Of a stretch of DNA of 64,000 bases, positions 4,418 to 28,500 are shown one piece after another. Numbering within the stretch: the first letter of the stretch is position 1; each line of letters starts with the position of its first letter. Source of the stretch: Phoronis australis (lineage: Eukaryota > Animalia > Phoronida); NCBI GenBank assembly GCA_002633005.1, contig NMRA01000133.1, forward strand, positions 490,627 through 554,626, in the 5' to 3' direction. The translations under genes and the position numbers were made by a program. A model generated the notes under the pieces. It was not told the DNA's origin. It saw nothing but the letters and a program-made list of their open reading frames with translations, and ran no database searches.

Positions 4418-4517
4418 TCACGCCTCAGTGTCATCACCTTCATGACCCTTAAGACGTAGCCGGGCAAAATCCTCAAAAATAAGGTCGTCATCCTTGTCCG
4501 CATAACAACTCTCACCA
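4418..4517 (-). CDS. ARRB1: Beta-arrestin terminal coding exon 13 ([32 protein letters not shown])
   Basis: ttgcag|T GGT...GCG TGA; AP-2 beta-appendage binding motif DxxFxxFxxxR. Confidence 0.96.
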
Positions 4518-7500
4518 CTGCAAAACAAGATGGAGATTAAACTTTTATTTAGTCACTAGGAAGGTCATTGAGCAGACAATATTACTTTTCTTACAGTGAA
4601 TCAGCTTGGATGATATTTTAGCACAAAACGTGTCAGTGACAAACCCGAGAAGATACTCTGGCTTTAATGAAACAAACTTATGTTAATCAAAACAAAGTTA
4701 AAGCAGCAACACGGTTCTATGTGTTAGAATTGTTAGAGCCAACATGGCGCTATGTGTTAGGATTGTTAGAGCCAACATGGCGCTATGTGTTATCATTGTT
4801 AGAGCCAACATGGTTCTATGTGTTAGCATCATTAGAGCCAACATGGCGCTATGTGTTAGCATTGTTAGAGCCAACATGGCGCTATGTGTTAGCATCGTTT
4901 GAGCCAACATGGTTCTATGTGTTAGCATTGCTAGATCCAACAAAGAGATTCCGGACACCCCTGCTGAAGATGAATAGCGCTCGAACTAAACCCATGGCAC
5001 TAAAACGTTTTTACACCAAAGAAGACCGCTCCAACCAACAACTTCAAAGATGAGTGAAACCTGTCACAATGCAGGCAAACTTACTTTGTATCTAGTTGAA
5101 TCAAGTTTGTATCGACAGGCACATTGTCATCAGGGTTACTAGTGGCCACCACACTAGCTGGCCGACTTGGAGGGGGTGACTCTGGTGGCTTAGGATGGGT
5201 CAGCGTGAACGGCAACTCCACAGAGAGGTCACTGCAAAAACAACAACAGACAAACATTACAACCTTATATTTGCTTTAAATCCAGTCAGTCATAGGGTTC
5301 TTCCTCCAATTATGATTGATGAAAGGAGCCACAATCTCTTTTAAGTCACTCGTAAGTTTTTATCCTCTAAGACCCTACTTAAACCTTACTTAGAGCTTAC
5401 TTAAAGAAGTGATGAACCTGCCTACTGCCTAACAAGACTGATCTCGACTCGTTCCTTATACGAATTTGAAGTGGAAGAAATGACAAACAATTCCAACTCG
5501 AGACCACGCGCAGCGCATAAAATGACCACTCTGGTCACTCCAACTTATTGACCCTATCTCAAGCAGTATGGATGACAAAAGTTGGACGTAACGTGCCCGT
5601 AATTTGAGAACCAGGTTGATGCTCATTATTCAGTGGAGAAAACTGGTTCTCAAAATTCAGCAATATATATCCGACCATTACCGGAATGAACTGTTAGTTC
5701 TACCAAAGGCCAGAAAGCACTCCTCATCTGTGTACGGAACAAGTTAAGATCGATCTTAAAATGTTAAGTAAATGAACACCAGAAGGCAATCTTGACAGAT
5801 ACCAGGTTTGTAGCTGCACAATATACCCCCCATTCTCCTGCCATTGTCAATATTTCTAATATGACACATACAGTAACAAAACCCACATTTTGAATGAGAC
5901 TGCGTATTGCCATGATTTTGGTCAGAACTTATTTCTGAGATAGGGAAGAGCTGACAATTGTTGATACTAGCCACTAAAGTTGAACGTTAATTGGCTTTCA
6001 TTTAAAAGCTTTTAATTAGAGGACCTCCATGTGACAAGTAGTCTTGTGAAATAAAAAATACGACAAATTTGTCCTTTCACACTTCTTCCGGTTCCATGAA
6101 TGTGTGGACAGCTAATCATCTGTTTTAGATGTTTTTATTTCTCTCTTGACTAACAAGCTTCTTGGTGACCCCCAGTATAATAGATACAACAACTACCATG
6201 ACCCGTGGAGAGGCTAAGTAGATACACTATCTTGTTCGATATCTTCAGATTTCAAGATGGCCACCCAACTACCACCCGAAGCGGATATGATTACAAAAGA
6301 ACTCATGTGCGACATGCTATCCAGGTACGAGAAAACACACGACATCGAGGTTGAACATCTTCAAGTGTCAAGAATGACTAAACCGGGTGAGTAACAAACT
6401 TCTTCACATGATAATTTCTGTCGCTCGTTACTCGAATCACACAACTGGAAATCATCAATTTGTTTTCATCACAACTGTTAATGTCACTACGTCTTTCGAA
6501 AACAATTTACAATATTTTAAATTTGAATTTTGCAGCTAAAATAACCCATTGAGATTACAAATAAAAATATCCATAAAACAGTTCTACAGCAAATCACTTC
6601 TTATATGGCACATTACAAAAAATTATATAAAAGGCAAATTCATGCAAATAGCCAACTGTTGCTAATTCATTTGACTAAATTTTAGGAAACTATTTTCACT
6701 TTATTTAGGTTAAACAATTTATGAAATGGATTTCAAGCACGTTAGTTAAGTTGAATTTGTGCCCTAATACATCTCATTCACCACAACTCCAAACATTTTC
6801 AATGTTAACTGAATGTAATAAGAATCCATTTTTGGAGGTGCAGTACCACCTAAAATGGCTGCACTGTAGTAAGCGACAGCAAACTACTGCATTATGGGTA
6901 CTCTCTCAACTGCTGCCACACAGGCAGGAAGTTACAAAGTATTTGTTTTTGTGATAACTTTCCACTGACGAAGCTCATTATGTGTTCAAAATTGTTGAAC
7001 GCAAAGTGACAAGTTATCTTTAATGTTTTTTTTTGTAATTTAAGGTGAGCACATTGGAAGCTGCATACTGCGAGTGTGCGTAACCACTAAGTCATTGGAC
7101 GGTGTCAGCAAACAGCATCACTTGGTCGTTAAGACTAACTTCACTGACCCAGTCCAAGCACAGAGAGTGACAAATAACCTAATGTTTGTCAAGGAGATCC
7201 AAACCTTTAAAGAGCTCCTCCCTGCTGCAAACAGCCGGATTCGGGAGATAACTGCAGGGCAAGATGGGGTCACTTACGCAGTGTCAGTACCAGAGATGGT
7301 TGGTTACAGACTGGGAGAGGGGCATACTAGCATGTTGGCACTGAAGGACCTCAGTACAGAGGGTTACAAGAAGGTGAATGTATCGGAGAGTCTAGACATA
7401 TGTCACTGCAAGCAAGCCATGAAAGAAGTGGCTGCCTTCCACGCCATTGGCTACCTGCTGAAAGATGGGGTCACAAGGGAGGCGTTTCTGACGAGGTATC

Positions 7501-10500
7501 CTTATCTGGGCGTCTTCAACTACACCAGCCAAGAGTTCATTGCACCTTTCATGGACATTATCCGACTCACTTCAGACAGTCTTGTGGAGTTCATTCTGAC
7601 CTCTGACCTTAGTGAGGACCTCAAGCAGCAGGCTGGCAAACTACGTCTGCACGACCCTGTTGCAGAGCCCAAAAGCTGCAGTGCTCCAGTAGAACCGTTT
7701 GCAACCATATGCCTCTTGGACTTCTCGACAAGGAACATGCTGTTCAGATATGACGATCAAGGGGTGCCAGTTGGGGTCAAACTTCTCGACTTCCAGACTG
7801 TATATTATGGGTCGCCAACATTCGATTTATCAATGTTTCTCTATACAGCCTGTTTTGACGGCATCAAGCAGGACATATTGGACGACTTGCTGAGCACGTA
7901 CTACAATGCTCTAGCGGATAATTTGAAAAAATTGAGAGTGCCACTGAAGTTCACTTATCAGGAGTTCTTCAAAGAGTTCATGAGAACACGACTATCCGCT
8001 CTGTGGTACGGACTGATGACACCTCCCTTCTTTCTCATAATGGGTGGATTTTTGGCTAGAGATGAAGTGAAAGATCCCACCTCAGGTGGACCAGCTAAAC
8101 AATTGGCTAAAGCATTGAGTAGGAGTGTCTATGCGCCATTTCTGTTAGACACATACAGGCTGCTGTCAACATATAACTTTTCAGTGACCTTACAACCTCT
8201 TTAGAAGCCAAAGGATGCATGGGAGATAACTTTACTTTAAAACGATTCTAAATCATTCTTTTTACTATTACGATCGATTTTAATTGTTTGGAATCGAAAG
8301 TAGACAAGATTTTACCAATTTTTACAAAGTTTTGTACTTTTTTGAAAACATTGTCTTTTTAAAGCTGTACTTCACCCAGTCTAGTTGGCTAAAAACAAAG
8401 ATGCAACTTGGCCTTTTATTCAAATAAAATTTGTCTCATGACATTCCATACCATGATGGGATTCTATTTCTGATAACAACGAGAACAATGAAACCATCAA
8501 CGACTTGAGCAAACGCATAATAAGTTAGAGTTCATTGGGGTTGGCCTACTCTAAAACCGTGAATTTGAAAATGTCACTGAAATACATTGCCTGTGAATTT
8601 GAAAATGGTCACTGAAATACATTGCCTGTGACTCCAGTTCCCGGCTCATTTCGGAACAATTCAAGATCAGGCGAGCGTGTTGATGCTTTTAAAATCGTAT
8701 TCAACAAAACTGGGTCCAGCAAGAGGCTTTTGACATTCCCAAGAATACCTCGATATCTTTTTTATTGTTTTATTCTACAACGGCAGTGGGTGCACCCGGT
8801 GGTGAATCAAGTGCGTGAGATATGGACGAAATGGCTGTACACTTTCTACATCAAGGTACTGTCTCTCTGGTTCCAAAAGGGATCTTTATTCAACATTTTT
8901 ATCATTTAAATGTAACCCAGTAATATACATAGTCTCACCTCTTACGTTTTTGTGAAATTTAGTTGTTAAGCTAATGATTCATTTTGCCAGGACTTTCCCC
9001 AGTTTCCCCCCCACAAAGTATAGAATCAAGAGCCTAGTCAGTAAATGTTCGGAATATAGTCCCATGGGCCCCACCTCTGCAACCACAATTGAAAATTTCT
9101 ATGGTTTGTAAAGTGTTCCATTCTCAACAGAGTCAACAAGTGTCAAGTAAAATGAGAAACAGGACCAAGTGTATTTCAGCACATTTTTGCCTTAAACAGT
9201 ACAACATACAACAAACTTTAGGTACCATGGCATGGTAACCTCTCTTAACTATACAAGTTGGTCCTCATTACCCGTCCAAGTCACATTTTCCCTCTATATG
9301 TCAAGGCTTGGAATTTTCAGCGGAAACACAGATTTCCGCTTTTTTCTTTTATTCCCTCTGCGTATTTCCGTTATATTTCGGATTTGCCATAAAATTATCG
9401 CGGCAAATTAGTTTCTCACCATGGTGTTGCCAATGACTCGAAAAGCGGAAACTGCTCTTTATGTTTCGGAGGAACGAAAATAGTAATTGCGAATCACAGG
9501 TGCTCGAAATTTCCTGATGACTCGTAACCATATATCAGAAATATGTCTTCTTAGTGATGAGTGATGGCAGTGGAAATCGAGGAACACATAAATTCAAGCG
9601 CCTGTGCCTGGGATACCGTGGTTCATCAATGGCGTCTGCATTTGGTACAAAATCGCGGTGACAAATAGTGCGATTCTGTGGTCAAAAATGCGAGAAGTAG
9701 ACAGAATATTTCGTGGAAAAAGTGGATAAAAGAAACGGTCAATGTCTTCACAAACAACATAAGTCAAGGTTTGTGCTCTGTAAACTCTGAGAGAGGAACA
9801 ATTACGGAGTGCGTGGCCGAGTCGCCTTGGACAAAGTTGGAGTCAGAGGACCGACTGAAAACGATAAAACACTAGAAATAACGGTTCCTGAAAGGAAATC
9901 CAACCGTAACACGTTATTCGTTGGACTGGAATCGTGAGATGTGAGTGATGTATGTCCAAGCTTGGGGTATTAGTCCAATTTTCACTATCCTTATTTATTA
10001 TCTAAATTATCAACCTGTTTTAATTGTATCTTTGTTACATGTATTTAATTATTATTTTACTACTTTATTGTATTATATTACTGTTTTATATTTTGTTGTT
10101 GAGGGTCCTCTTGGAAAGCAGTGCTTTCAATGAAAAGGCCACCCTCATTTTAAATGTTACAATAAACAAATGAAAAAATAAAATTAGAAACATGCAAGGC
10201 AATGACCAGTGGCTGGTTGCATGAAACAGTCCCAAATAGGGACCCAACTAAGGTCCCTAAGTCTTTTTGCGTATTTGTGTCTTTATGGACTCACAGATGC
10301 AATATTTTTCTATCATTTCATCCTCATTATGAGCTCCTCTTTGATTACTGACATTTTCTAACAATTGAACTAAAAACTGAGCCCAGAGTTCATTGAAAAT
10401 AAATAGGGACCCAGCCCTTAAATTGGGGGTGTTGCATGAAAAGATCCCGAAAGATTTTCGATAATATTGACAATTCAACGTAGAATTCACTCTTGACTTG

Positions 10501-13500
10501 TATCAAAGTACAAAATTGACTTAGTAGTGAAACTAAAACAATTCAAGAAAGGGCAATCGATGTTTTCACAAGTCCAAAAATACGCAGTAGATTTAGGGAA
10601 CTTAGTCGAGTCCCTATTTGGGACTGTTTCATGCAACCGGGCAAAGGAGACCAGACATTCTAGAAAGTCTGATTCTTTGTTGCTGACGTACCTGGTGCCC
10701 AGAAGTCCCAGAATCAAACGAACTTTGACTTTGTACTGCACCACAATGCCAAGATTTTCTTTCTGACTAGGATCTTGGATTCTGAAATGACAGCATACCA
10801 CATGTGAACAGCATACGACCTGTGAACAGCACTATGTAGATGGTGAGATTCCAGCCAATATTAGGAAACATTTTAAACATGGCCACTTTACCCATGAAAG
10901 AAGAGACACGTTACTGATACTTTCCTTTAATAAATTTTGCAGCAAGAACGGATTGTAATATCAAATTTATCGATACAATTTTAAAATAAGGTTCCATAAA
11001 AATGGCTTAGGGTTTCATTCTGGGGCTTGGCTATTCAAAACCCATAGGGGAGTAATAAAATAATCATCTTCTCAGCCAGGACTACAAACCCTCTTTTAAT
11101 CTGTGTTTAGTTAGTCCAAGTGGGACACTTATATGAGGGCTGTTCCAGTAAAATCCATGTGGGAGGGGGGGACGGCAGTAGAAATAAAAATTCATGGGTG
11201 GTGGTCTTCAGAAAAAAACTCAAATTATGGGTGGTCATTCCTGTAAGAAGTGATGCATTAAAAATGGGTGGTATTTTTTGATCTGTTAACCTTGACAGGT
11301 TGGTTAATTCAGCCAACACATCTCCAAAGAAATCAAAACTCAAAAAATGCGATTGGCATATATCCCAACTTATCCCAATACAAAAAAGCCCATATTGCCA
11401 GTGAACAGAGTGCAATATGTTCACTAAGCCATTAATCAAGTCATGGGCAACTTGATTTGAACCAAGTGCTTGTCTGCAGTCCTATTGAATTGAAAAGTTA
11501 TGCAACACTAAACTGGTGTTAACACATATAAGAAAATTGATGATTTTTAAATAAAAAGTATGAGGAGTAAGATAAACAAGTTCCAATATTCACTTGACAT
11601 AGAAGTATAAAAGAGTTTGTGGAGACAGTTTGAGATTCATAGATCCTTATAATTGAAAAAATGTTCATTGAAATTATAGACACATGGTGAACAGAGACAC
11701 CTGGTGGCTGCCAAAAGTATTGTTCACAGGCTACTTTAATTTTTGACAATATTGGACAAGACAACTAGTTCTTGTCTGTCAATCATCTAAGTTCTTAACA
11801 GGTCCTCCTGGAGGCAATTTGTTTGCAAGTGTTGGATTTTATATTTTAACCTATTAAAAATAATTAAAAAATTATGGGTCATGGGTTGGAGAAATAAATG
11901 AAAAATATGGGCGGTGGGTACGAAATAAAAGTGCCTTCCCCCCCCCTCCCATACAGATTTTGCTGGAACAGCCCTGACTAAGAGCAGGTTTCACAAAGAA
12001 CTACTTTCACTGATCTTGCATGTCAATTTCAAAAGGCCTATTGTGTATGAAAGATGTCCATGACTTACAACCACAGGCAAAATGCTAATCCTCTATCTGA
12101 ACAAGTTACCCCACCAAAACCCAAAATGGTTTTCACGTTTTACACAAGTGTTACCATTGATTGAACGACATCTCTCTTGGCATACTCAGCAGGCGCATCC
12201 CACTAAGCCCATCACAACAGATCCAACCATGAAATGGAACAGTCGTTTAAACTGAGATTTTCAACTAATTCTTTTAAATACTGAATAACTAGTTACTATT
12301 TCTCCTTACATGGTGGACGATGCCAGACAGGTGTCCTCGTGCTTCAACTTCCCGTCCAAGGCTAGCCCCCTCTTGTCTCTGTTCTTCTCCAATAGAGGCG
12401 TCAACTCGTAAACTTTACAGAAGCCTACTTGATTAGCATGAATGGAAAACCCGTCCCTGAGAGTAGTAACGTCAAGATGAGGTAGGAGTAATTAATAGAG
12501 GACACAAGTGGAAGAGCAAACCATTCTCCATAAAATTAACAGAATAAGACCGTTGTTTGATACACATGCATGAATATTTGTCAAGTAAGTGGAATCTGCA
12601 GGGGGTCCGGTTAGCAATACATCTTGTTGCACAGTTGTAGTTTAAGTAGAACTGATGTACATTGAAGGCTTTTAAGGCCAGGACAACACGGAATTCTGAC
12701 AAAGTATGTAACTACAATGATAATCAAAGAGTAACAGCTCCCTGTAACTTCTTACACTTCTAGAGATATTCTTGTGTTAAATTGTGACTTGGGTACTGAA
12801 ACCTCGCACTTGAACGACATAAAAATCAACCTTACACAACAACAACTTGTTTACAAAATGTAGACGAAATAGGAAAAAAAGTGAACACTATTTGAGTGAA
12901 GTGTGCGTGTGGATGTTGCTTCCAATAAAGGTTCATGTGGCAGTATACCTAGCACAGACTAAATTGTAACATACCATTTATATTCGTTAAAGAAATAAAC
13001 CAACACCCAAAAGAAAATCAAAGCTAATGAAATGGTATCCACAAAAACTTCGTTCCCTTTCGTTTGTGTCGAAGCTGTATGAAAGATTGGTAGCCTAAAA
13101 TGGCTGCGAAACAATCTTTCAGCAGTGTGACATTGCACGATTGTAGTGCTGACATGCAACAGAATATAAGGCAAGAGCAATGCAAAGTGATGGTAGACCG
13201 TCAACAGCAAAGGTTCCAGGAGTCAATTTTACAAGTCAACCCATCAAATTGATCAACTTTGAAATAACTGTCGGACAGAGCACACCTTGTTGAGGAACAA
13301 CAGAGATGCTGCTGAGATAGTCACATACAACGGAAAAACAGAGTGTTGGTCCATTCCTATCTTATACCCTTCAAAGGTAAGGCAATTTGAAGCTACTATA
13401 AAAATTACATGTAAACAAGGGCTTGAGTACTTAATACGTTAAAACTCTGTGTATCACTTTCTAACATTTCATCACACTAGGTCAAAGTGTTTTGACAAAA

Positions 13501-16500
13501 TCCAACAGTAAAAACAAGAGTAAAATGATCAACACCATGTGCGAAGACAGTTGTCAAAAATGACTGGTGCTGAACTTACGTACTTTAACCATTTACCTTT
13601 AAGTGAAACTCAGTTAAAATCTGATACGTGATTTGAAAGATAATCAGCAGCTATGAAATGCTAACTCAAAACCAAACATGGGTAACAGGAAGTACTAAAT
13701 ACTGGATCTACCTGAACATAGCTATGGAATGCGTCAAGTATACTAACTATGTCAAGACATTATGTTAAGACACTTACACACTGAGTTACCCACAGACAAC
13801 AACTAACAGGATGAAATGGGTTACAGGAACTGTTTAGTCAGACCTGTGTGAAAGCTGGCTGATGGTGGCACATCCCTACCATAATCTTTGTGTTGAGGAA
13901 ATGAATAGATTTGGAAATATTGTCAAAACTTAACTACAGAGCACCATATGCACTATTCTCCACACTGCAGGAAGGTACTGTTCTTAAAATATTTTACTTT
14001 TTCACATCTTCACTATTATTTATGAAATTTTTATCTCAAAGGTGGTAAAAATAAATGTGAAATAATCTATATGAAACGGAACAACTCGGTTGCCGCACTC
14101 AAATATGTACCTAAAGTACATTATTTTTTTTGTATATAATAAATTAAGTCCAAAAAATCTGAATACTTCTTATACAAGAGCAATGTGTAGCATTGAAATG
14201 CGCCCACAACTGCAGTGCAAACAGTGTGCATCAAAGGGTGTTTATTAGAATAAAAACAGTCCACTAGATAATACAGAATACGGAAGGTGTCATTGTCTCT
14301 CGAATAGAAAGGTATTTGCTAAATATCATCAAAGACAGAGACGAACACGAAAAAAATGTCTTTAGGTGGCGAAGTTGGAGTCCAAATGGTTTCTAGGTGT
14401 CACAAAATTGCTTTTAAGCACTTTGAGAGATAACCACAAAAATGGACAACGGAACAAGTGAGATTTTGATCATATGTCCACAAAAACGTGTGGGCACATA
14501 ACACACCATTGCGCAATGTAAACGTTGTTCTGTTCCACTGAATTACACAGCAGACAAAACAGTTTACAAAATACTACAAATTAAAAACTTCTGATCAAAA
14601 ACACCATCTGTTATATATCACTAATTAGAAAAGGCTTACATCGGAGGCCAAGCTTGTTTTAAGCTACGAAGCAGCATAAATATATTCCAATGATAAGTTT
14701 CAGCATGATCACCAAAAACATGTGTTGCACAGACACATGTACAAAATAAAAGCAGTACGGCTAGAAACAGGATGAAGAAACAGGATGGAAATATGGAATG
14801 ACAAAATGCGTCGCTGATGAGAGAGACTCAATAGGAATGCATTATTGCAAACTGTTAACATAAACTTTAATTTAATGGTCGTGTTAAATACTTTAATATC
14901 TAAAGAAAAATGTACATGGCTATCAAACTAAGACACTCCATCGCTAGACTCCTATCTCTTGTTAAGACCTACTGAACAAAGCTTTCAACTATTGATTTTG
15001 TCTTCAGGCCCTTGGCAGTCAATGGCAGGGAGTAAATTTATTAGAACTATCTATCACCAACAGCTAAAACCAGAGTCTATTCTCTCAATAAACTGAAACT
15101 CACACACCAAAAAATTTTCATTTAATGAAAAGGGTTTTAGTCGCAGCCTAATATTTTAGACAATGCCCCTACCGTTGGAAATCGGGAATTTTTTCTGCAA
15201 TCTCTGTTGCCAAAGTTGCACGTTCAAGCCTTTTAACAAGGCAGCAGGGCAAAGGCAGTAAACAAGTAGTTTTGCCAACTTACTCGGAGTCACACTCGGC
15301 CACCGTACCTTTGTACTGTGCGGTTGTGAAGAGAGAGATATCAGCAAACTGGCGAACTGGATTAAGAAGAGAAACCAACAGTTTAAACGTACATGACAAC
15401 AAGCAGTAACCACATGACCCCTGTGTCCCCCTGCAAACTGTCCCGCCTCCGTGATACATCGGGCCAACACATCACTCCCACGTACAGAGGGCTCACAGAG
15501 AGGGAGAAAAGATTTAACCGCAGTTTATTCTCACAAGTCTGTGTTGAGCTGTAGCGTGTAGAGTTCATGCATACAACATGTCTTTTTGTGGAGATGTACA
15601 GTAATAAAGGCTCCCTAATTTCCTGTTACGCAATCCACGATTTCCAAGCAAACTTGATTTATAATTGCAGAGAAATATATTAAGTTAATGGGCTTCAAAA
15701 TAAGGATGTGGTTTCAAATGGAAACCTATTATTCCTTCTATCAAATTTGCGAGAATGTCACCATTATTCTGCAAACAGGAATTTACGCAGTACTTGGAAA
15801 CTAGGGAGAGTTTGCAGAGAAACAATACAAGGAACCCAGACACCGTGACAAGAGACATGGCAACCAGAGCATGCTGAGAACCAGTGAACTGTATACAGCC
15901 AGCACATACTCCACTGAACATATACACAAGGCAAGCAGGAGAAGGGGTAGTCTACCCACAGGCCACTAGTACTCTACCCCTGACAACAGAGGGCATGTGT
16001 GGTCAGTGACACTTACTCAGATTCCCTCTCCTCCACCGGGCACTTGTAGGTGGCGCTACTAAACAGTATGATGTCGGCTGCCTGGATGACTAATAAAGGG
16101 CCAATGGTTGGTAAAGATTTCATTGGAAAACAGCAGGCACAGCACAGGTATAACTATTGGCAGTTCCAAGCAACACCACGTGAATATGTATCAATACACT
16201 ACAAACCATGTCATGGTTACATACAAACATTGTCATGGTTACACAAAATGTTGAGACTGCTATAGGGTAACGCACTTCAGAAAGTGAAAACTGGACACAT
16301 TCACAGTTAAGGAGAAAAATAATGCAGTGGAGAGACTAAAAGTATTCTGGCCAAATCACAAAAGAGATGGGCGCTATCTCCAGGGCATTCTTCTTACTAT
16401 GCTTGTTCCCACAAACAGGATTCTTTGTTTGCAATATAAAAATGCTGTGAGAGAAAAAAATGTTGGTGGTTCTTGAGAAAAAGCACTTGTCCGCCATGTA

Positions 16501-19500
16501 GTGAAATGGAAACTATCAAGGAGAACACGCGCGTGGTTAGTGGAGGAAAAAAATTGATTACACTGAAATCTGGCCATTATATTACATGGCTTGTCCAATA
16601 CTGTTTTCGGGGTGGCTATAACATCTGATCAATGTCCATGGTATTTTACAAAGTCTGACCTATGGTCTTAGAAGTTCAGCCACAGAATTTATAAGCCAAC
16701 CCAATGAACTGTTTTTCAAACATGGCAGTGCATCATGTGATAATTTGAACATTGCCAATTGGCTGATACGAGTTGATAATCTTCGTGCTGAACAGTCACA
16801 CATTTCAAGTAACGGGGAATTATGAGGCACTCCAACACAGTGATTGTAATAATACGACCATTGGAGAGGTATCAACCCGTCACCACATTGAATTAAGAAA
16901 AATCGGGAGGGCTGCCAACCTATTTGACACAATTTAACCTCCACGCTAAAAATCTGCATTTTGCAAGTGAAAATGAGTGTGAAATCTAATATTTTTTGAA
17001 ACTTTTAAATTTCATTCATAACATAATATTCCCAAAACAAGAAAGCTCAGTTTCAAATTGCCTTCAACTAAAAGGGGTCATTACAAACCAGGCTCATCAC
17101 ATCAATGTTTTGCAGTTGGCATGGTCAGGCACAGTGGACCATAGCAGAGCAAATCGCGATATCCCGTGATCCACACCAATGTTGTCAGCCATGACATGCA
17201 GCGAATTCTTTTGAATGCTTTCTACGAGTAATCTAATTCCTAGGGGTGTTTATCTCCAAATATCAGCTCTCGGCATTCTGACATGACTTTTGTAACAGAT
17301 GACATCCCACAATGCACGGCTATTAAGTGACGTTTTCATTCACAAACTTTAACTGCCCAATCACGAAAGAGAAAGCCCAAAATGCAAATTACTTTCACAC
17401 TCTCTCGTACTCAGTACAAATTTTATAGGTGGGATTTCGCGCTCTTGATCTTGAATATTTTCGTCATCTACTGGATTTTTCTGCATCATTCTTTGCTGCT
17501 CTCATACTTCAAAATATTGACACATTTAAAAATATCTTTAATTTTTAGCCGATAGTCTGAGTCAAGAAAATTTCAAAAACACGCATGTAGCATCTTAAGA
17601 CCACACAAGTGCAGAGAGTCCTGGTCAATCTATAACAGTTGGCAGCCCTGATTTGATATAAAGTAAATACATTTATAAGAAAGTCAGGAAATGAGAGCAA
17701 AATGCAACTTCTGAAGGGAAAATAGGTTGATGGGATATTTTCGCAAATACCAAAACTTCAAATGCCTTTGATGACTGGAGAAGACAACAAGAAACTGTAG
17801 TGATGGCTCACAACATATGTTGTGGAGTTGTATTCGTATTTCACAGCATTGGTTCTAGAGGTGTCTATTTTGTCAGTTATCACACAGGGACACTAAAGCA
17901 TCCTGTAAACAAGGAACTACCACGTCTATGCAGTTTTTAACTTACTGTCACTATTTGCTGCAGGATAGCATAGCACAGGCACAATACATTGTACGTCCAC
18001 CAAACACAGCTACTTGTTGGCTGACTTCTCAATGTGACATCATGGTGTTCAGTACTGAAAACTGTTGTAAGCAACCTCATTTCCTCCACCAGTAATTTTG
18101 CTTCAATGGTCTCCAGTCATCGTAAGTCATTTAAATCCAGGATTTGCCCAAAAGAACCGTACTTCTTGTTTTCATTCGTCCATAAAATGTAAACAACTTC
18201 CTGACCACCCGAAAACGGACACCAAAGTCAAATTAAAATTCACAGCAGCTACACTTTCCAAAAGTATTTAAATGAGATCCTGATAAATAATACACAACAC
18301 ATACGATATAACCGCACCACAGGTAAATACCGCTACCTATCAACATACCTGATATCTTGATTTTTTTAATGGTTTTAGTTGTGTTGTTGTCCACTGTCAC
18401 ATTCACGTTTATCTTTTCTCCATGGTAGTATTTCTGCAGTTACAACAGATGGAGGTGAATAACAAAGCATTACAACGTTAAATAATGCAAAGTGAGGCTG
18501 GTCATGAATTTCCAAGAAAATGATGGAACACTAATTACTAAACAATTAACAGAACGGTAGAGCTCTCAGCTCAGTAATTATGCACTAATTAAGCATTTTA
18601 ATACTATGAACCACTCAAGGATACAGTCAAGGTGTACCAGAAACACGAGAACACTTTCTGTCGAAAAACCAATGGCAGTCAAAATGCACCTAGTTTAGAC
18701 AGTCAAATGCAAGTTGATAACATTTTGCTGCAGACCTGCTGACACTCGCCACACCAAGTTGCAATTTTGTAACCTGAAGTTACCCATCAACTTTTTCATG
18801 ATTTTCATTGAGCTTCGTGATTTCTGAGGTTTTTCATGATGAGCAAGCAGCATGTAGGCTCAGTCAAGCTTCAGTCAGTCCACAATACAATGTGAAAAGG
18901 GCCATTTTGAGAAACCATACAAATCATATGAACCATTCCTTACCTCCTTGTCTAGAGAGGCCTCCAGTTTCAGCTTGCCAGGGCTCATCATGAACTCCTT
19001 GGTGGCCTCCGACATGGGTTGGGGTGCTGCTTCTGTGGGGGCATAGGTCAGCTTACGAATGGCCAGGCGCACAGAGTTCCTAACAGAGAAAGACAAAGAC
19101 GAGCCTCAAATCATATATGCATGCACGCCTGTTACATTCAAGGGCCAGATGTTACCAAGAAAATTCAGAATGACAAAATAGATATAAACACAAAACGTAT
19201 GGAGAGTGTTGTAGATGAAGTAATATCCCACGAGACATTCTGTGTATCGACCGAGATCTCATACGTGGAATAATGTTGACCTGGATATAACTTCATCTAC
19301 GCCATTCGAGGTACGTTTTGTATTTGTCCCATACGCTTCAAATTCTGAAGTTTCTTTCATTTTTTCTCCAAATTTTTAAATAGCTCACCCTGACTGTTCA
19401 CATGGCGGATCACATCCTATATGTATGTACTTGCACGTTATGATACAAGTTTTCTCTAGTAAAAGAAAGAGTTTCAAATGTAACGATTAATTACTTGAAA

Positions 19501-22500
19501 AGAGATAACAAAGACGACGGTAATTGTGCATTGAACTTGTAACATTTCCTGCAAAATAATTAAATATCAGCAGTATTTAACATTGCGTTACCGAGGAATC
19601 GGCACCTGACATTTAAATATTTAGCAAATATGATAAAGAAGTGTCATTAACAGTTTTTACCAGATGTTATGTTTGAGAAATGATTGCATACTGAGTGTTA
19701 TTTATACTGCTGCAATTTTATTACTTTGAACTATTGAACTATGTTGAGAAAGTTTGATGATCGAGTCGGCTACGGATGTTGAGTTAACATTGAAGTACTT
19801 TTTGAACTTTCCATGTCAAGAGGTCACAATTAAACTAGTCAAAGTAGTGCACTGGGGAAAACAATATCGCATGACCGTATCGCATTCGACTTATTCAACG
19901 CGTATGGGATAAGAAAGGTAATCCAGCTACCCAGTTCTAACTGTTAATATCATTTTTATTAGCATGTTTCTCATATGTCTATTCACCTGTTCAGTCACTT
20001 TAACACAACGTGTTCCTGCTCCCTGTCATCAGCAGGTTGGCAGATTAATATCCTCAACAAAGAGGAAGCTAGTACAGATACTCTTCGATGCTTTTCTCAC
20101 TGACATTGAAACTACTTAATTTTCAGTAACTGGAAACCAGTGTTGATATTAGACCTGCGTGCTGACGCACACAGCTGTAACACAGTTTCTCAATTGTTTT
20201 GATGCATAGCGCTTGTNTTCCAAAAGTCCGTAAAGAGTCTATCCAAATATCTAACGCGGCTAGTCATGGCGTCGCGTTGAAGCGTAAAATCAGGATCTGT
20301 AATTTCATCAATCTCTACAAACTGTCGAGGTAAAGTTGACGTTATACGTCCATGGATGAGGTGTGATGGAGTGAGTGGTACTGGATCCTTGTATTTAAGG
20401 TCAGCTAATTCAAAGGCACTTCACTTCAAACGTGACGGTTAAAATAATATATTTTAAATACCCATGCATCAACATTGTTGAAAAACGTTGTTTTGGTTCC
20501 ACGTTTTGGGGTGAAACGCTTCATTTTTTGGTTTATTTAATACACCACCTTAGCGTTCTAAATTACATGTTGTGATAAAACCATGCGCAGAATACAGTTC
20601 ATTGTTTACTGAAACACTAAGATTCATTCTTGCCAATTTATTCCAGTTTGAAGTTTGTGATTTGACCTTATTAGCATTGTGTGGAGGTTTGACTACCAGG
20701 CACAGTTGAGATCGCAAACTTTCGCAATGGCACAATTTATCGTAATCCTCAAATTGCGAGTCAGTGGGGACTTCTGCAGCACAATATTCTATCATACTGC
20801 CAAAGTCTGTAAGGCCTTGAAGTACAAATCTTTGTGGTCTTGGGGTATTGATAGTTCTACTCCCAACGGCTGAGGGTGTGGGGAAACTGGCGCAACCAGA
20901 GGGACAAGGATAATTGAGACAAGTGTGAAGGTTGACAGAATGACGAGCAAATTGGCGGAAACTGCCATGTTGGAAGAACTTTTCAGTGAAAAGAATTTCA
21001 ATGCATCAACAAAAATTATACCAGTTTGTGCTTCAAAGGCATTACTAAACTGTAACAGTTTGAGGGTTAAGACAATTTGTACAATTACATCAACCAAAAA
21101 CTGTCACAACAAAAAATTACAAACAGTCTGTGTTTCAAAGTCATTTTGGGCTTGGAGGCGATAACTTGTCTTCATATTGCCATAGAACTTTACAAATCAA
21201 AGGTGTGCTTCACAAACAACAGGTCTTTTGAAATTGATGTGCAAGGTCAGTAAAAGTAGTTCTTTGTGATCTGTACTCTGTAAGTAAACACAGTTTAACA
21301 AAGGGTTTATGATCCTGGCGGAGGAGATAACTGTTTTATTAACCCTCTAGGTTTTGAATAGCCAAGCCTGGAATGGCTCTGTCAAAACTGTTCTAATGAG
21401 AAATTGACAACAGTCTGTGGTCTTAAAATGCAGTAATAATATATGTGTAGTCAGCACCATCTGTACACAGTTGTCAGAATGTATGTGATGTCTTACCTTT
21501 TGTGAGGCTTATTCAACTCATCAGGTACATAAGTCTTCAACTCATAATCCACTCCACATGGCTGTAAACACAATTAAGTAGTTTAGTTAACTTGTCTCAA
21601 TAGTTTTATAAATTGCAGAAGCGCGACTGAAACACGACTGTACTTTCTGTTTGATATACTCTCGCTCCTACTCTCTTTACCATTTTCTGGTGTTTACCGC
21701 CCACTGGCTCTCTTCCGCTGCTTGTGGGCTTCTTAGCGTGCGTAACATTCACACCCTCTGTTTGTATGCCCTACTGTCACTGTTTATTTCACTTCAATCG
21801 TGTTCACTTTACCAAGTGCCAGATGATCAAACACAGAAATATAGCTACAGTAAAAATTTCTGAATTTGGGACAAAAATAATTTCTAAAATTGACATTAAA
21901 AACCAGACGATTGCCGCACAAATAAAAAAGTTCAAGTTCAACCAACGTTTCGTCTATTCATTAGACATCATCAAGATCATATTTAAAAAGGACAGCAAAT
22001 GCCAACATACAGCTCAGGTAACATCCATAGAGTGAAGTGAGAGATACATAGAATATAGTCAGTAGCTGGTCATCCCAATAGTTGCAGGGTCACTGAGCTC
22101 TGCATGTTGTTCAGAGAATCAGTAGCATGCTGGTTCTGAATGGCCAATGACTCTTTAATGTACAATAATTCTTTATTAGATTCTCTGCAGATGAACTTTT
22201 ATTTGTGCGGCGATCATCCGGTTTTTAATCTTACTGTGGCCAAAAACTGATTTTAATTAAAATGAACATATTTCCAGTCTGCCATATCATTGTAAATGGT
22301 CAAAATTTTACCAAATGTTATTTGGTAATAACCACGCCAAACACATCGGCCAAAAGCAAAGTAAATTTCCTGACAACTTATTGCTGTAGTTGAGAAACTC
22401 GACAAAATTAATTTTCACGGTCTACCATATTGTGTCCTAAGATATTTCAACTTGCTTGTTTGTAATGTCTATTGGCAATCTATTTCAGAATGCACACCGG

Positions 22501-25500
22501 AAAACTGGGAACCGTACAGAGAATATATAAGTGAGTGTACATCACGCTGTCCAACACGAAGTGCAGTCGTGTTTTCAATCACGTTTGTACTACTGAATGG
22601 CTGGAACCTAACTATAGAAGTCACAGACAGCAAGAGTCTCAACAGCACACTGTCATTATTCTAAAACTGTTTTCACTGTCATTGGATACCTTTGTTACCA
22701 CCTCTAAAGTGTACTTACCCCTACTATTCATATCACCACCAATAAACCCGGCCCCATCGATTAACAAACTTTTGATTCAGATCACTTACAGCTATAAAAT
22801 TGGTACTACCTTGTTCCTTACTCGTACTAGAGGCAAAGTGGGGAAGTGCTAACAATTCTATTATTGGTCAAGATCACGCACGATATGTTGAATTGTCACG
22901 GCGTGTCACTGCGCGACGAACATGGTCTCACGCACTACCCAACTGTCTGTTCTTCAATATCCCAAAAATCATTCCACATTTGACTATGAAAAAATTTTAA
23001 GATGGAAAATGGCCTTAAACTAAAGTTATTTTTGACGACAGAAAGGCGTGTTCATTAACCCATGAATTTCTCTCCACTTAGATCTTGTAAACTGTGGATA
23101 AGTCAAGATAAATGCTTGGCTTAACAAAGGCATTTCTACAGACTATTTCAAGGGACAAACACAATGCCTGACTGGACATAACAAGTCCCTTGTTACAGTT
23201 ATTGTGTTTACTCTGTGAAATGAAACAGAGAAACAACTGATTCCCCTTCACTAACCATGGTCGCCCTGACATAATGCTTTCTAGCACTTTCTGGAGTTAA
23301 CTCTTAATTGTTGTAGATTGTACACCAATGATGACTACAATAATCTGGCGAAACTAGGGCACCTGTGTTTACACTTGAACTCTGTCAGTCCATTACACAT
23401 CCAATGATCATATACCTGACACTGGTAATGAAGCGTTCTATTGATATGCTGGCCAGACGTTTATCTTATTGCCATCACCAATTTTTGTGTCTTGCTGATG
23501 AACAAGGTATCTATTACCATTCAAATGCCTTGTGGGTAATGTTTATAAGAAAGCAGATGTGTTTGATCAGAAGACAGGACATCTGATCAGAAAAAGACCA
23601 GTTGCTTAAAACAAACAGATGTTCCATCTGCCATCTTATGAGTAATTACCAAAGCACATATGTGCAAAATGGGTAACTTGCTAGCCAATCGAGTCATTGC
23701 AATGTAGGCTTGTCATAGTAAGCAGGTAGATCTGTCATCTTGAGGTCAGATGTCATGGAGACAGAACAGACTTCAGATGAGCATTTACAAGTGAATTTAG
23801 ACAGCAAATGAGACATCTGATCTGCCTTCTTTCTGATCAGACGGCATGTAAACATGGTATCAGCAATGTTAAAACTGTTGAAGCTGAGTATAACAAAACA
23901 AGAACACGTGACACCTGCAGTAGTAAGGAAATTGTCCACCTTTGTGAAGTCCTTGTACATTTCATCTAATAACTTTTCAACTGTTCGTTTTCCACTCGTA
24001 CAAATATATATCTTCTGAATCCACGATGACTGAAATTTTTTGAGCAATTTAAATCTAACTGGCTATCAGGTTTAAAAGTGAGGCAAGACAGCTAGGAAAA
24101 GTGTGATTCAGTTTAGTGCGCAATTCACTTGGTGTAAAACCTCTCTGCCTATAAACAGTCCACGCAGTGCCACTCACCTTGCCAGTGTCCCCTGGTGCTG
24201 GCTGAAGTGTGACAGAGGCTGGTGAGTTAGGGGGTAACTGAAACCATTTAAAGAACACACCCATGACAACATTTATATTCCATTTCTCCTGATCTGAATG
24301 ACTTGAGGGCCCTCTTGGAAAGCAGTGCTATCACTGAAGAGGTCACCCTCATTTTAAATATCACAATAACAAATAAATAAATAAATAAATAAACTTTCAA
24401 TCATTATTTATACTAGTGTTGAGTAACTAAATGCGTAATGCTTCGCCTTGTTTGTGAATTTCATATAACTGTAATACCATACTTAAGTTGCCAAGAGTCA
24501 TTTCTGGAATTATTCGGTTTACACTTTTCAGATCCTCCCCAAAATGAAAGGAAACGGACGTTTCATAGTCTCTGATAACGTGGAGTAAAGGAACGCAGAG
24601 TGTGATCTGAAACACATGCAAATCTCCAAATCAACAATGTCTCTGAGTAAGCGAAATCCATTTTCCCCACCCGGAATCAGTCAAATTTTATCACAATTCT
24701 TAACAGGTGCGTCGTCTCACCTGGAAAAAGAAAGGATAAGCATTGGGTCCAAGCTTCTTGATGAGTCGCTCCTGAAGTCGGGTCAAAGGTCGCTTGTTTT
24801 CCTCCTCCACTGGGTAAACCTGCATCGAGGCCAGGAACAAGTCCTTCCTGAAGGTAAGGCCGAGAACATCCAGGTCCTCACGGCCGTAGCGGAACGCGGC
24901 CAGCACATGGGCAAACACCTTGCGACCTTTCAGGTATTCAGGGTCAGCTAAGACCACGCCATCTGGAATCACAGCAGGAGTCTCTGTTATATGTCTAGTT
25001 TAAATCATTCCAAAAGTTCAGAATTAAAAGATTTTAGGCTTCTACTGAATCAATGATTAATAAACCATTAAGCCATTTTGAAAGTAATTAACTGAAAAGG
25101 AATACCTTATGGAAATGGAAATAGCCATTAGGGTGTGCAAAGGTAATACTTATTTGAGTTCTTCACAAACTCTGCAGAGAACTACTGCTTCTTACCACCC
25201 ACAACCACAACACAGTCTCGCCTTTCATAAAAAACAACACACTTTGAAAATAATTGGCAGACAATGAAAACTTTGTTGAAACTAAGGCGCATGAGATCGA
25301 CAGATAAAATTAGTTAGTGTCAACCATACTTACCCCATGCCTTGGTGTTAAATTTCACAATCATGTCAAGACATGTCCAAAAGTATTATTATACAAAGGG
25401 AATTTGTCAAGAAGTAAAATAGCTCACTGGGGTGTCCAAGTAGTTGAGTGAATCTGAAAATCCCAGTTTTATCAAACGTGTGGTCGCTAAAATGTTTGTT

Positions 25501-28500
25501 GGCACATTATGCCTTATGTTCGTTGGCACATTACTGTAAACGCAACAATGCATTTTTGAGAGAGCAAAAGGTTGCAACAGATCTTGACTTGTCAATTTTC
25601 ACGAGTCATGTGATTGAGTTATGTGCTAACTGAAATCAAAGATACCACCGTCTCAAGTAAGACCAGACTTACACGAACCTTTAACTACAATGAGCCCCTG
25701 GAACGTGAACTCTGTCAAATACTTAAAAAATTCCATAAAACCAGTGAAGGTGTTTTGAATACAACCAATTGGGAAAGTTGAAGTTAGTTAGATTCGTCTG
25801 AAAATCAATGGTTCTGGCACCAACTAACCACATACGTTTGAGTCAAATTTCAAGATTTGTAAAGCGTTTTGACATAAGTGGCTACTAGATACACCAAAAA
25901 GACACCAATATTGTTTCAGAATTACTACTTAGAAATAAATGTTGATGAAATACCAAGCAACCACTAAGTCCAAACACATCTTGTAAATTCAGATTTGTAA
26001 CACTAGTTTTTGGAGTATAAAAGATACTAGACAAAGAACCTCAAACTGTGTATCCCTGAATCTATTCACATGTAACAGACTGATGCTGAGAGCTCACTTA
26101 ACAGAAATGTTGGGTCATATAGTTTAGAGTTATTCTGATCACTGTGTTGTCATTACCCCGATTACCAGAGCTACTCATGCATTGTGATGTGTTTTGGTTG
26201 CATTGCCGGCCAGTGACATTGCTTCCCGATGACAGTTTTATGTCAGTGAAATAAAAAAACCCCATTGACTACTTGGATCATGAATGGCGTCTCATTTTTC
26301 ATTTCCAGATTTGTAACAGTTACAGCTGCCCAACGGAAATAAGCCGTACTCAGTGACCTCTGTTGGTGACCTTGGTGAGATGACTGTATGCAACACATGA
26401 CGCAATACAAACGTTCAGTGAAAACTTGTTCTTTCCATGAAGTTTAGCCATGCACCTCAGACTGTAGTTAACAGTTGCATTGCCATGGCAACAGCTATAC
26501 ACTGTAGATAGTGAAATTACTTGTACTAATATTGATTATAAAATATATTGCCTGATCCACAACTTTACAGCACGGCATATTAATGTCACCTTCACTTAAC
26601 AAAAGAACTAATCATGAACGGGGCTTCGTTATTAATAAATGGTTCGCAACAACTTAACTTAGATCTGAATATTTTTCTAATAGTCACAATGTTCACTTTC
26701 ATTTACGATTATAGCAAACAAAAATTTGAATTACTTATCAGTCTTATCGATATAGCCTCTTTGCGTTTTTGTGTTTATGTGCATTTTGTAGTCCGTTTAT
26801 TTGTAATTAGATTGTTCAATATCCTATGCATTACTGGAGAAATCGTCTTTTGTAATTTTGATATCTGTCAGTAATGATCCTCTATATGTTTATTGTTATC
26901 ATAATGTTAATCTGCCTGCATATGATATCTTCGATATGTGTGCAGTATTTGTATCACTTCTTTTATTATTCTTAAGATGAAATAAAAGTTAATAAAAAAA
27001 ACCCACGGCCCTCAACAGTTTTAAATATACGTGACCTTGAACTAGTATGAACTAGAACTAGCATGAGCTGGAACTAGCGTGACCTAGAACTAACGTTACC
27101 TAGAACTAACGTTACTTAGAACTAATGTTACCTAGAACTAGCGTGACCTAGAATTAAAGTTACCTAGAACTAATGTTATCTAGAACTAACGTTAGCTAGA
27201 ACTAACATGACCTAGCAGCATGACTCGTAACTACCACATTGTCAACTTTCCAACAAAAGTTGACACTTGTTTGCGTATTTATGGCAGACTTGTGAAGTTG
27301 TCATCTTGATATGCAAATGACACCATCACATGACTGAAGCTTGACTGTATTCCATGGAAGTTAGTTTCTTGTGAAAAAAAGGAGTTCATTCCCACAGTTA
27401 ATTGGGAAATATAGCCATGTGCTGCAAGGAGCACATGATCAAACTAGCGCTACTTGAGACAATTTAACATTTACGTAATGTGCCCCAGATCGACACAGAG
27501 CAAACCAAGTCGTCATGACCTTTTACAGGATATATTCAAGCTGTGGTCAACAAACCAAGAACTGAGTGGGCGGGGCGGTCACACCTGAAGGAAAGCATGT
27601 CACGTGGCCACTGAGTGAGGAAAAATACAGATACATCATGGAGTTTTGTCAAGTAGTAAAATTGGGTGTTGCAAAAATATTAGTGAAAAGGGGGCATTTA
27701 GACACTGAGGATGGACAAAGGACTTTATGGAGACACAGCACTTCTAAGTGGAACTGCCCCGCCAAAAGTGGTACGGTTGGGAAGTACGCAAAGGCCACAC
27801 TCGGATCTATCCTCTACCTAATATGGAAGAAGCCTCATCTACCATTAATGATGACAACCCATTAGCAAATGATAACATGCAATCACACAACAGAAATACG
27901 CCACCCGACTATTGATACACCAATCCTTCATCTAGTACCTTAAGAACCGCTCCAGGCATGAGCTTTGTGTTCTCCCAAAAGGCTTTCAGTAAGAGAGGCA
28001 AATTTTAGTACATAATTAATTTCAAGTCATCACTCCAACTGTTCTAAAACAGGATGTGATTAAAGGAGAGACATACCTAATTACTTGCTCCTCAGTCACA
28101 AGTATCTAATTAGCGTACTGAAAGCCTAATTGCTAGAATGTGAATGTACAAGAGCAACTTGTAAGAGATGTCAAGAATTCTGATCACAGGTGAACTTCAG
28201 CTATGTGAATATGTCATAAAAGGCCATATTCAGCTCATAGACATACGTGAATGAATCGTGATAACAAGACAATTCAGCTCACGTAAGTCTGTGAATGTAT
28301 TATGAGAAGATATATTCAGCTCATAGAAAGAAATACTTAGCTCATAGGCAGGGCAGAAAAGGAAATAAGCTTCCGTATTTACTTAGCTTTCGAGAGAAAA
28401 TGAGGACTTCTGACATCATAAAATAAAACGTCAATTTATTTTGCTTCACATGTTGATTGGATGATTATTGGAACAACTATAGGAAAGCAATTTCAAATAT

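Follow-up and report, generated by a model that had tools for sequence, protein, structure and literature searches.

Our analysis concerned a stretch of 64,000 nucleotides (nt) of the Phoronis australis genome (assembly GCA_002633005.1, contig NMRA01000133.1, positions 490,627 to 554,626 of the forward strand), hereafter called the window and numbered from its first letter. Its composition (approximately 39% G+C) and long introns give it a eukaryotic character, and its minus strand carries a 13-exon beta-arrestin gene in which two adjacent exons, 9a and 9b, are alternatives. The gene was traced from exon 2 to the stop codon (4418..33932, minus strand) by tblastn, Pfam and RNA reads. With beta-arrestin isoforms of Lingula anatina as the tblastn query, all exons aligned in order from approximately 33.9 kilobases (kb) down to 4.4 kb, and exon 1 was not located in the window with these isoforms.

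The alternative region lies between two constitutive exons, all on the minus strand. Exon 8 (18349..18433, 85 nt), placed by its sequence and by the RNA joints 18433-18944, 15356-18349 and 16089-18349, includes in its product the equivalent of Lys232 of mammalian beta-arrestin-1 and ends in phase 1. It is followed by exon 9a (16017..16089, 73 nt), the minor alternative, which is preceded by the acceptor ttattag, begins with TCATCCAG and ends with GAATCTGA before the donor gtaagt. An intron of 660 nt (15357..16016, from the exon coordinates) separates it from the major alternative, exon 9b (15284..15356, 73 nt), which lies downstream, begins with TTCGCCAG after aatccag and ends with GACTCCGA before gtaagt. 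Both alternatives were defined by sequence, alignment to PDB chains and RNA joints. Exon 10 (12310..12456, 147 nt; joints 12455/6-15283/4, 12455/6-16016/7 and 10781-12310) closes with its first base the codon left open by 9a or 9b, so that each copy encodes 25 residues when the leftover G of exon 8 and the G opening exon 10 are included.

By similarity, the gene belongs to the arrestin family and is of the non-visual, beta-arrestin type. Exon 4 matches the Pfam family Arrestin_N (PF00339; 37.1 bits, curated cut-off 24.9), exon 8 matches Arrestin_C (PF02752; 28.2 bits, curated cut-off 27.7), and the Lingula homologue used as query matches the PDB beta-arrestin-1 chains with an E-value of 9e-172. 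In a homologue search with exon 4, listed for the best 120 of 2026 matches at E <= 1e-10, the closest named proteins among these 120 were beta-arrestins of Lingula (90%) and Mytilus (88%), and the gene's own product was not among the matches. The end of the gene, placed by Lingula tblastn and sequence, comprises exon 12 (5085..5231, minus strand), which bears LIQLD, a motif that we take to be clathrin-box-like, and exon 13 (4418..4517, minus strand), which contains the stop codon and a stretch of 16 residues, presumably AP-2-like. Both elements are in constitutive exons and hence common to the 9a and 9b isoforms, as the original prediction, made from the letters of the window, had claimed for the clathrin and AP-2 tails.

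Exons 9a and 9b are tandem-duplicated homologous exons. They have the same length and phase, both have AG/GT sites, and the identity between them is 43/73 nt and 14/25 amino acids, 11 of the 25 residues being different. The nucleotide differences are distributed over codon positions 1/2/3 as 7/7/16, a distribution typical of an old duplicate with both copies under purifying selection. A profile of exon 9, run against the 2445 open frames of the window in search of a third copy, matched 9a and 9b alone (E 8e-15 and 2e-13); as the next match had an E-value of 1.2, there is no third exon copy in the window.

The use of both exons is documented by RNA from two studies, one providing three raw-read runs (X2, X3 and X4) and the other an older run kept as contigs (X1). 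Stranded reads across the gene were found in one direction only, as expected of a stranded library and a minus-strand transcript. Joints were listed on 12250-18500 at a threshold of three reads in a run, below which rarer events would not appear, and they coincided exactly with the predicted borders of 9a and 9b. The joint of exon 8 to 9b was covered by 30, 14 and 33 reads in X2, X3 and X4, respectively, and that of exon 8 to 9a by 2, 2 and 8 reads; the corresponding counts were 37, 19 and 51 for 9b to exon 10, and 1, 2 and 0 for 9a to exon 10. Other joints were absent from the listing for this range in X2-X4, including any joint of 9a with 9b and any skip from exon 8 to exon 10. In run X1, there are two contigs of 130 nt, in each of which one copy of exon 9 is flanked by 29 nt of exon 8 and 27 nt of exon 10; the depth is 31.9 for 8-9b-10 and 14.9 for 8-9a-10 (9a making up about one third of the sum). 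Exons 9a and 9b are thus spliced in mutually exclusively, and 9b is the major form. On the acceptor side, the share of 9a was 2/32 reads (6%) in X2, 2/16 (12.5%) in X3 and 8/41 (19.5%) in X4, and did not differ significantly among the three raw-read runs (p = 0.26).

The pair resembles mutually exclusive exons arising by tandem duplication in general: the copies are adjacent, homologous, equal in length and phase and provided with their own splice sites, each transcript includes one copy, and the frame breaks with both or with neither. Since 73 nt is not divisible by three, inclusion of both exons or of neither shifts the frame, and the frame alone keeps such products out of the protein pool. 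The arrestin pair differs from this general type in two respects. First, the 660-nt intron between the copies is too long for steric hindrance to exclude double inclusion. Second, an inverted-repeat search for docking/selector RNA pairing gave just weak arms of 14-23 nt with 78-94% complementarity, and these short repeats near 9a and 9b are taken as chance.

Residue numbers were obtained by phmmer comparison of the exon translations with all PDB chains, using full-length beta-arrestin-1 as the reference. Residue 1 of 9b (Arg) aligns to residue 236 of beta-arrestin-1. The alignment of 9a starts at its second residue, a Gln, which corresponds to residue 237; therefore, the preceding Ile of 9a stands at the position of Arg236. 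Exon 9 spans positions 235-259, including the C-loop. Lys250 is present in both copies, 9a having in addition Ile236, Ile242, Cys251 and Pro252, and 9b having Arg236, Ser242, Gly251 and Thr252. The original prediction had read these positions in the same way, with the arginine kept in 9b (VRQ), Ser and Gly at the Cys242 and Cys251 positions of that exon, and VIQ and KCPV in 9a; all its residue statements hold in the alignment, which places the Ile at 236 and not elsewhere.

In mammalian beta-arrestins, phosphoinositide binding by K232, R236 and K250 is a determinant of the lifetime of the receptor-arrestin complex and of the arrival of arrestin at clathrin pits. In the window's gene, Lys232 is encoded by exon 8, and Arg236 and Lys250 by exon 9. 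On sequence grounds, the triad is complete in the 9b isoform, and in the 9a isoform Ile236 accompanies Lys232 and Lys250. The assignment of the three residues to a phosphoinositide (PIP) site, on which the original prediction relied, is confirmed by published data, in which beta-arrestin-1 with the substitutions K232Q/R236Q/K250Q (3Q) is deficient in PIP binding, and phosphatidylinositol 4,5-bisphosphate (PIP2) is proposed to chelate K232 together with R236 or K250 (PMC10030194). Exon 9a naturally loses one of the three residues mutated in 3Q; it differs from the mutant in that only one of the three is changed, to Ile rather than Gln, along with the rest of the hairpin. The C-loop of arrestin-1 comprises residues 247-254, which correspond to residues 241-248 of beta-arrestin-1 by the numbering offsets of the PDB alignments. 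The predicted contact of this loop with the receptor also finds support, as the C-loop is stated to belong to the receptor interface and to vary in position between complexes (PMC7913897).

The reading that we favor, with a probability of roughly 0.55, is that 9a and 9b are exclusive tandem exons, the minor 9a form being weaker in the binding of PIP2 and inositol hexakisphosphate (IP6), different in receptor contact, and unchanged in its tail. The gene gives rise to two protein forms, with 11 differing residues in the hairpin 235-259. Judging by its residues alone, the 9a isoform would have a weaker phosphoinositide site in the C-lobe, because one of the three contact residues (K232, R236 and K250) is lost. 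The swapped segment would give 9a another C-loop surface and could retune receptor preference, and the isoform would keep LIQLD and the AP-2-like tail.

Alternative exons of the same kind are present in other animals. Among the matches listed in the homologue search, nearly all protostome beta-arrestins read VRQFADICLFSTAQYKCTV at the position of exon 9, and a few differ. In 90%-identity clusters, isoforms of one gene differing by exactly the 25-residue exon 9 block were found in four species, a brachiopod, two nemerteans and a chiton: Lingula anatina (one alternative and two canonical isoforms), Tubulanus polymorphus (one alternative and three canonical), Lineus longissimus (seven alternative, six of one kind and one of another, and two canonical, that is, three versions in all) and Liolophura sinensis (two alternative and two canonical). 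In all of them, one version is VRQFADICLFSTAQYKCTV and the others lack Arg236, Cys242 and Gln248, which is the likeness to the Phoronis pair; the differences are that these isoforms are automatic predictions and that 9b of the window is unusual in having Ser242 and Gly251. The exon pair is already visible in public isoform annotation, and its functional reading is still testable.

The alternative form was also found in four cDNA (complementary DNA) records of chitons, and a non-Arg form in cDNA of Peronia. A search with a profile of the alternative blocks brought in more proteins lacking the Arg: one of the brachiopod Terebratalia, ten of tapeworms, one of a monogenean and two further records; Arg is retained in two trematodes. 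When all the protein sequences collected were sorted by the residue at position 236, 205 had Arg (56 distinct) and 32 did not (18 distinct). Among the distinct sequences, Arg236 is found in 56/56 canonical and 0/18 alternative exons, Gln248 in 53/56 and 0/18, and Lys250 in 56/56 and 10/18; Cys242 is found in 54/56 canonical exons and in none of the 16 of 18 alternative exons for which the residue is given. The Ser242 and Gly251 of 9b occur in none of the 56 canonical sequences, where Cys occupies these positions in 54/56 and 55/56, respectively.

These counts bear on another explanation, in which the choice of exon serves chiefly to switch receptor selectivity and phosphoinositide binding remains adequate via Lys232 and Lys250. 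Several observations speak for it. Exon 9 covers positions 235-259 with the C-loop, which contacts receptors in positions that vary between complexes (PMC7913897), and a C-domain stretch of approximately 30 residues helps to determine receptor preference in arrestin chimeras (PMC11173308). Moreover, the 11 residues that differ between 9a and 9b extend well beyond residue 236, and Lys250 is retained in more than half of the distinct alternative exons (10/18). However, only one change is found throughout the 18 alternative exons, that of the PIP-contacting Arg236, which is invariant in the 56 canonical ones, and this points to the lipid site. Besides, the overlap of the receptor-preference element with exon 9 is only presumed. 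A switch chiefly of receptor selectivity seems rather unlikely.

Many spiralian isoforms (P0017, P0028, P0128, P0322, P0400 and others) carry a short optional insert directly after exon 9, which reads DSSNR, DNSR, DRQSER, DISKR, DLSKR or DR. A joint of this type was not seen in the RNA of the window among the joints listed on 12250-18500. In arthropods, the Arg exon is kept and the equivalent of exon 10 differs between isoforms (Anoplophora P0078 versus P0080, Penaeus P0024 versus P0025), which suggests that arthropods may have a different alternative exon pair at the exon 10 equivalent.

A 2010 abstract on the scallop reports two arrestin isoforms of Pecten retina, of 425 and 416 residues, which differ in 71 contiguous nucleotides; the isoforms (Pecten/Argopecten irradians) are named Arr12 and Arr23, and both come from retina (PMC2894550). 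Two scallop cDNAs, P0332 and P0047, differ by exactly the exon 9 block, P0047 being the non-Arg form, and fit the isoforms of this abstract (PMC2894550). The scallop case differs from the Phoronis one in several respects. First, Arr12 and Arr23 are both stated to lack a clathrin motif (PMC2894550), whereas the window gene has LIQLD. Second, the abstract presents separate isoforms, its text is silent on exon duplication, exclusive splicing and a lipid-binding Arg, and it offers no interpretation of the difference (PMC2894550). Finally, divergence is much greater in the scallop alternative exon, which has 5/25 residues in common with 9a. Apart from this abstract, no description of exclusive exons in any arrestin gene was found in the full-text literature searched, from which subscription journals are mostly absent.

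Position 236 is also changed in visual arrestins. In the PDB alignments, salamander cone arrestin reads KKIKIIVEQVTDVVLFSLDKYVKTV, with Glu at the Arg236 site (1suj), bovine S-arrestin likewise has Glu there (1ayr/1cf1), and squid visual arrestin reads KRIKIQIIQLADICLYETVTYKSVV, with Ile (6bk9). The statement in the original prediction that visual arrestins lack this Arg is thus correct for rod, cone and squid proteins, while the squid letters it gave were just approximate. The squid block resembles 9a in keeping Lys250 and lacking Gln248, and by eye it has 13/25 residues in common with 9a versus 11/25 with 9b. S-arrestin, cone and squid visual arrestins differ from the Phoronis forms in being products of separate genes and not splice forms.

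It could accordingly be proposed that 9a makes a visual-type photoreceptor arrestin from a general beta-arrestin gene, serving to quench opsins. Besides the Glu of vertebrate rod and cone arrestins and the Ile of squid at position 236, the non-Arg forms in the chiton, Peronia and Terebratalia cDNA records, which we presume to come from light-sensing studies, agree with this proposal, and the scallop non-Arg form P0047 was cloned from retina (PMC2894550). However, retina is the source of both scallop forms, Arg and non-Arg (PMC2894550), and eyeless tapeworms and a monogenean carry the non-Arg form in beta-arrestin models. The 9a isoform keeps the endocytic tail, and every one of the 53 PDB sequences that 9a matched at E-values up to 10 is a beta-arrestin, none being visual. 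The share of 9a does not, furthermore, differ significantly among the three raw-read RNA runs, which are of unspecified tissue. A purely visual role is opposed by the tapeworm forms, by the retention of the endocytic tail and by the occurrence of both forms in scallop retina, and we consider a photoreceptor arrestin improbable. Of the splicing switch originally suggested, between a PIP2-dependent endocytic form and a visual-like or receptor-selective one, the alternative and exclusive use of 9a and 9b is borne out by RNA, and the evidence weighs against its specifically visual variant.

The origin of 9a in relation to the alternative exons of other species allows two readings. Exon 9a has in common 13-16/25 residues with the alternative exons of the brachiopod and nemerteans and 15-17/25 with canonical exons. 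It possesses three changes diagnostic of alternative exons (a residue other than Arg at 236, a hydrophobic one at 242 and one other than Gln at 248), and does not have the Lys/Arg at 246 that is a feature of 15/18 alternative exons. Orthology of 9a with the alternative exons of other species failed a two-profile test, in which the canonical profile scored higher, and is therefore not established. Either 9a has one old origin with the others, followed by drift or gene conversion, or it arose by an independent duplication with convergent changes. A broader scenario can be offered only tentatively: the exon switch removing Arg, with its changes at Cys242 and Gln248, could be an ancient spiralian device, extending from flatworms to brachiopods, nemerteans and molluscs, that would let each cell choose a lipid-anchored or a lipid-independent arrestin, and might have been the raw material from which gene duplication made the cephalopod visual arrestin. 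The visual arrestin of coleoids is considered to have arisen by duplication of a beta-arrestin (PMC7553075), which makes its descent from an alternative exon conceivable.

A number of observations weigh against the reading of 9a as a functional isoform with altered lipid and receptor contacts. With respect to the RNA, 9a is minor (pooled, 12/89 acceptor-side reads), its mean depth is scarcely above the intron background, and its ratio of acceptor to donor reads is 12:3 versus 77:107 for 9b (Fisher p = 0.006); double inclusion of 9a and 9b may occur below the threshold of three reads per run. With respect to the lipid site, Lys232 and Lys250 remain in 9a, so that PIP2 binding may be just mildly changed, and the published PIP deficiency concerns the triple mutant and not R236 alone (PMC10030194). 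On the canonical profile, 9a itself reaches 43.9 bits, more than the 34.4 bits that it obtains on the alternative-exon profile. Finally, no alternative copy was found in the annotated isoforms of Haliotis (15), hemichordates (12), Owenia (3) and Dreissena (3), in those of Mytilus, venerids, Biomphalaria/Aplysia, Pomacea/Babylonia, sea urchin and Patella/Lottia, or in the beta-arrestin annotation of cephalopods. Absence of the alternative copy from annotation is weak evidence against a universal device.

Some of the same facts would fit 9a being a decaying duplicate, included by splicing noise and devoid of a function of its own, namely its share of 6-20% of acceptor-side reads, the few reads on its donor side and the many molluscs and deuterostomes in which no alternative copy is annotated. 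Yet the frame of 9a is open, both its splice sites are canonical, its differences from 9b are concentrated at third codon positions, and parallel alternative exons exist in at least four annotated genomes, all of which argues against noise; a complete 8-9a-10 contig with about one third of the summed depth was, moreover, present in the independent run X1. We regard a functionless 9a as very improbable.

If 9a is an isoform of reduced lipid binding and changed receptor contact, one animal appears to vary both the PIP site and the receptor-facing C-loop of its beta-arrestin by the choice of one exon, and other spiralians appear to do likewise. Natural isoform pairs that are 11 residues apart within one hairpin would provide a system for studying the coupling between lipid binding and receptor preference, and could help to trace the origin of visual arrestins, in which this Arg is likewise absent, from beta-arrestin. 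They also call for caution with single-isoform gene models of invertebrate beta-arrestins, which may hold either exon.

Several other features of the locus were observed in introns of the gene. Intron 12 contains a tandem repeat (4707-4942) with 6.8 copies of a 33-nt unit and 89% matches. In intron 10, the segment 11000-12000 is covered 130-430x by reads of both directions, versus approximately 20-40x on the arrestin exons. This segment also shows internal joints and numerous variant letters, and hundreds of loose read ends fall at 11136 and 11975; it resembles a repeat or transposable element that is present in multiple copies and transcribed. At 19352-19685, the reads are oriented against the arrestin transcript, and in run X2 a loose end at 19403 is seen in 45 reads; this may mark the border of an exon belonging to an antisense or neighboring transcript in intron 6.

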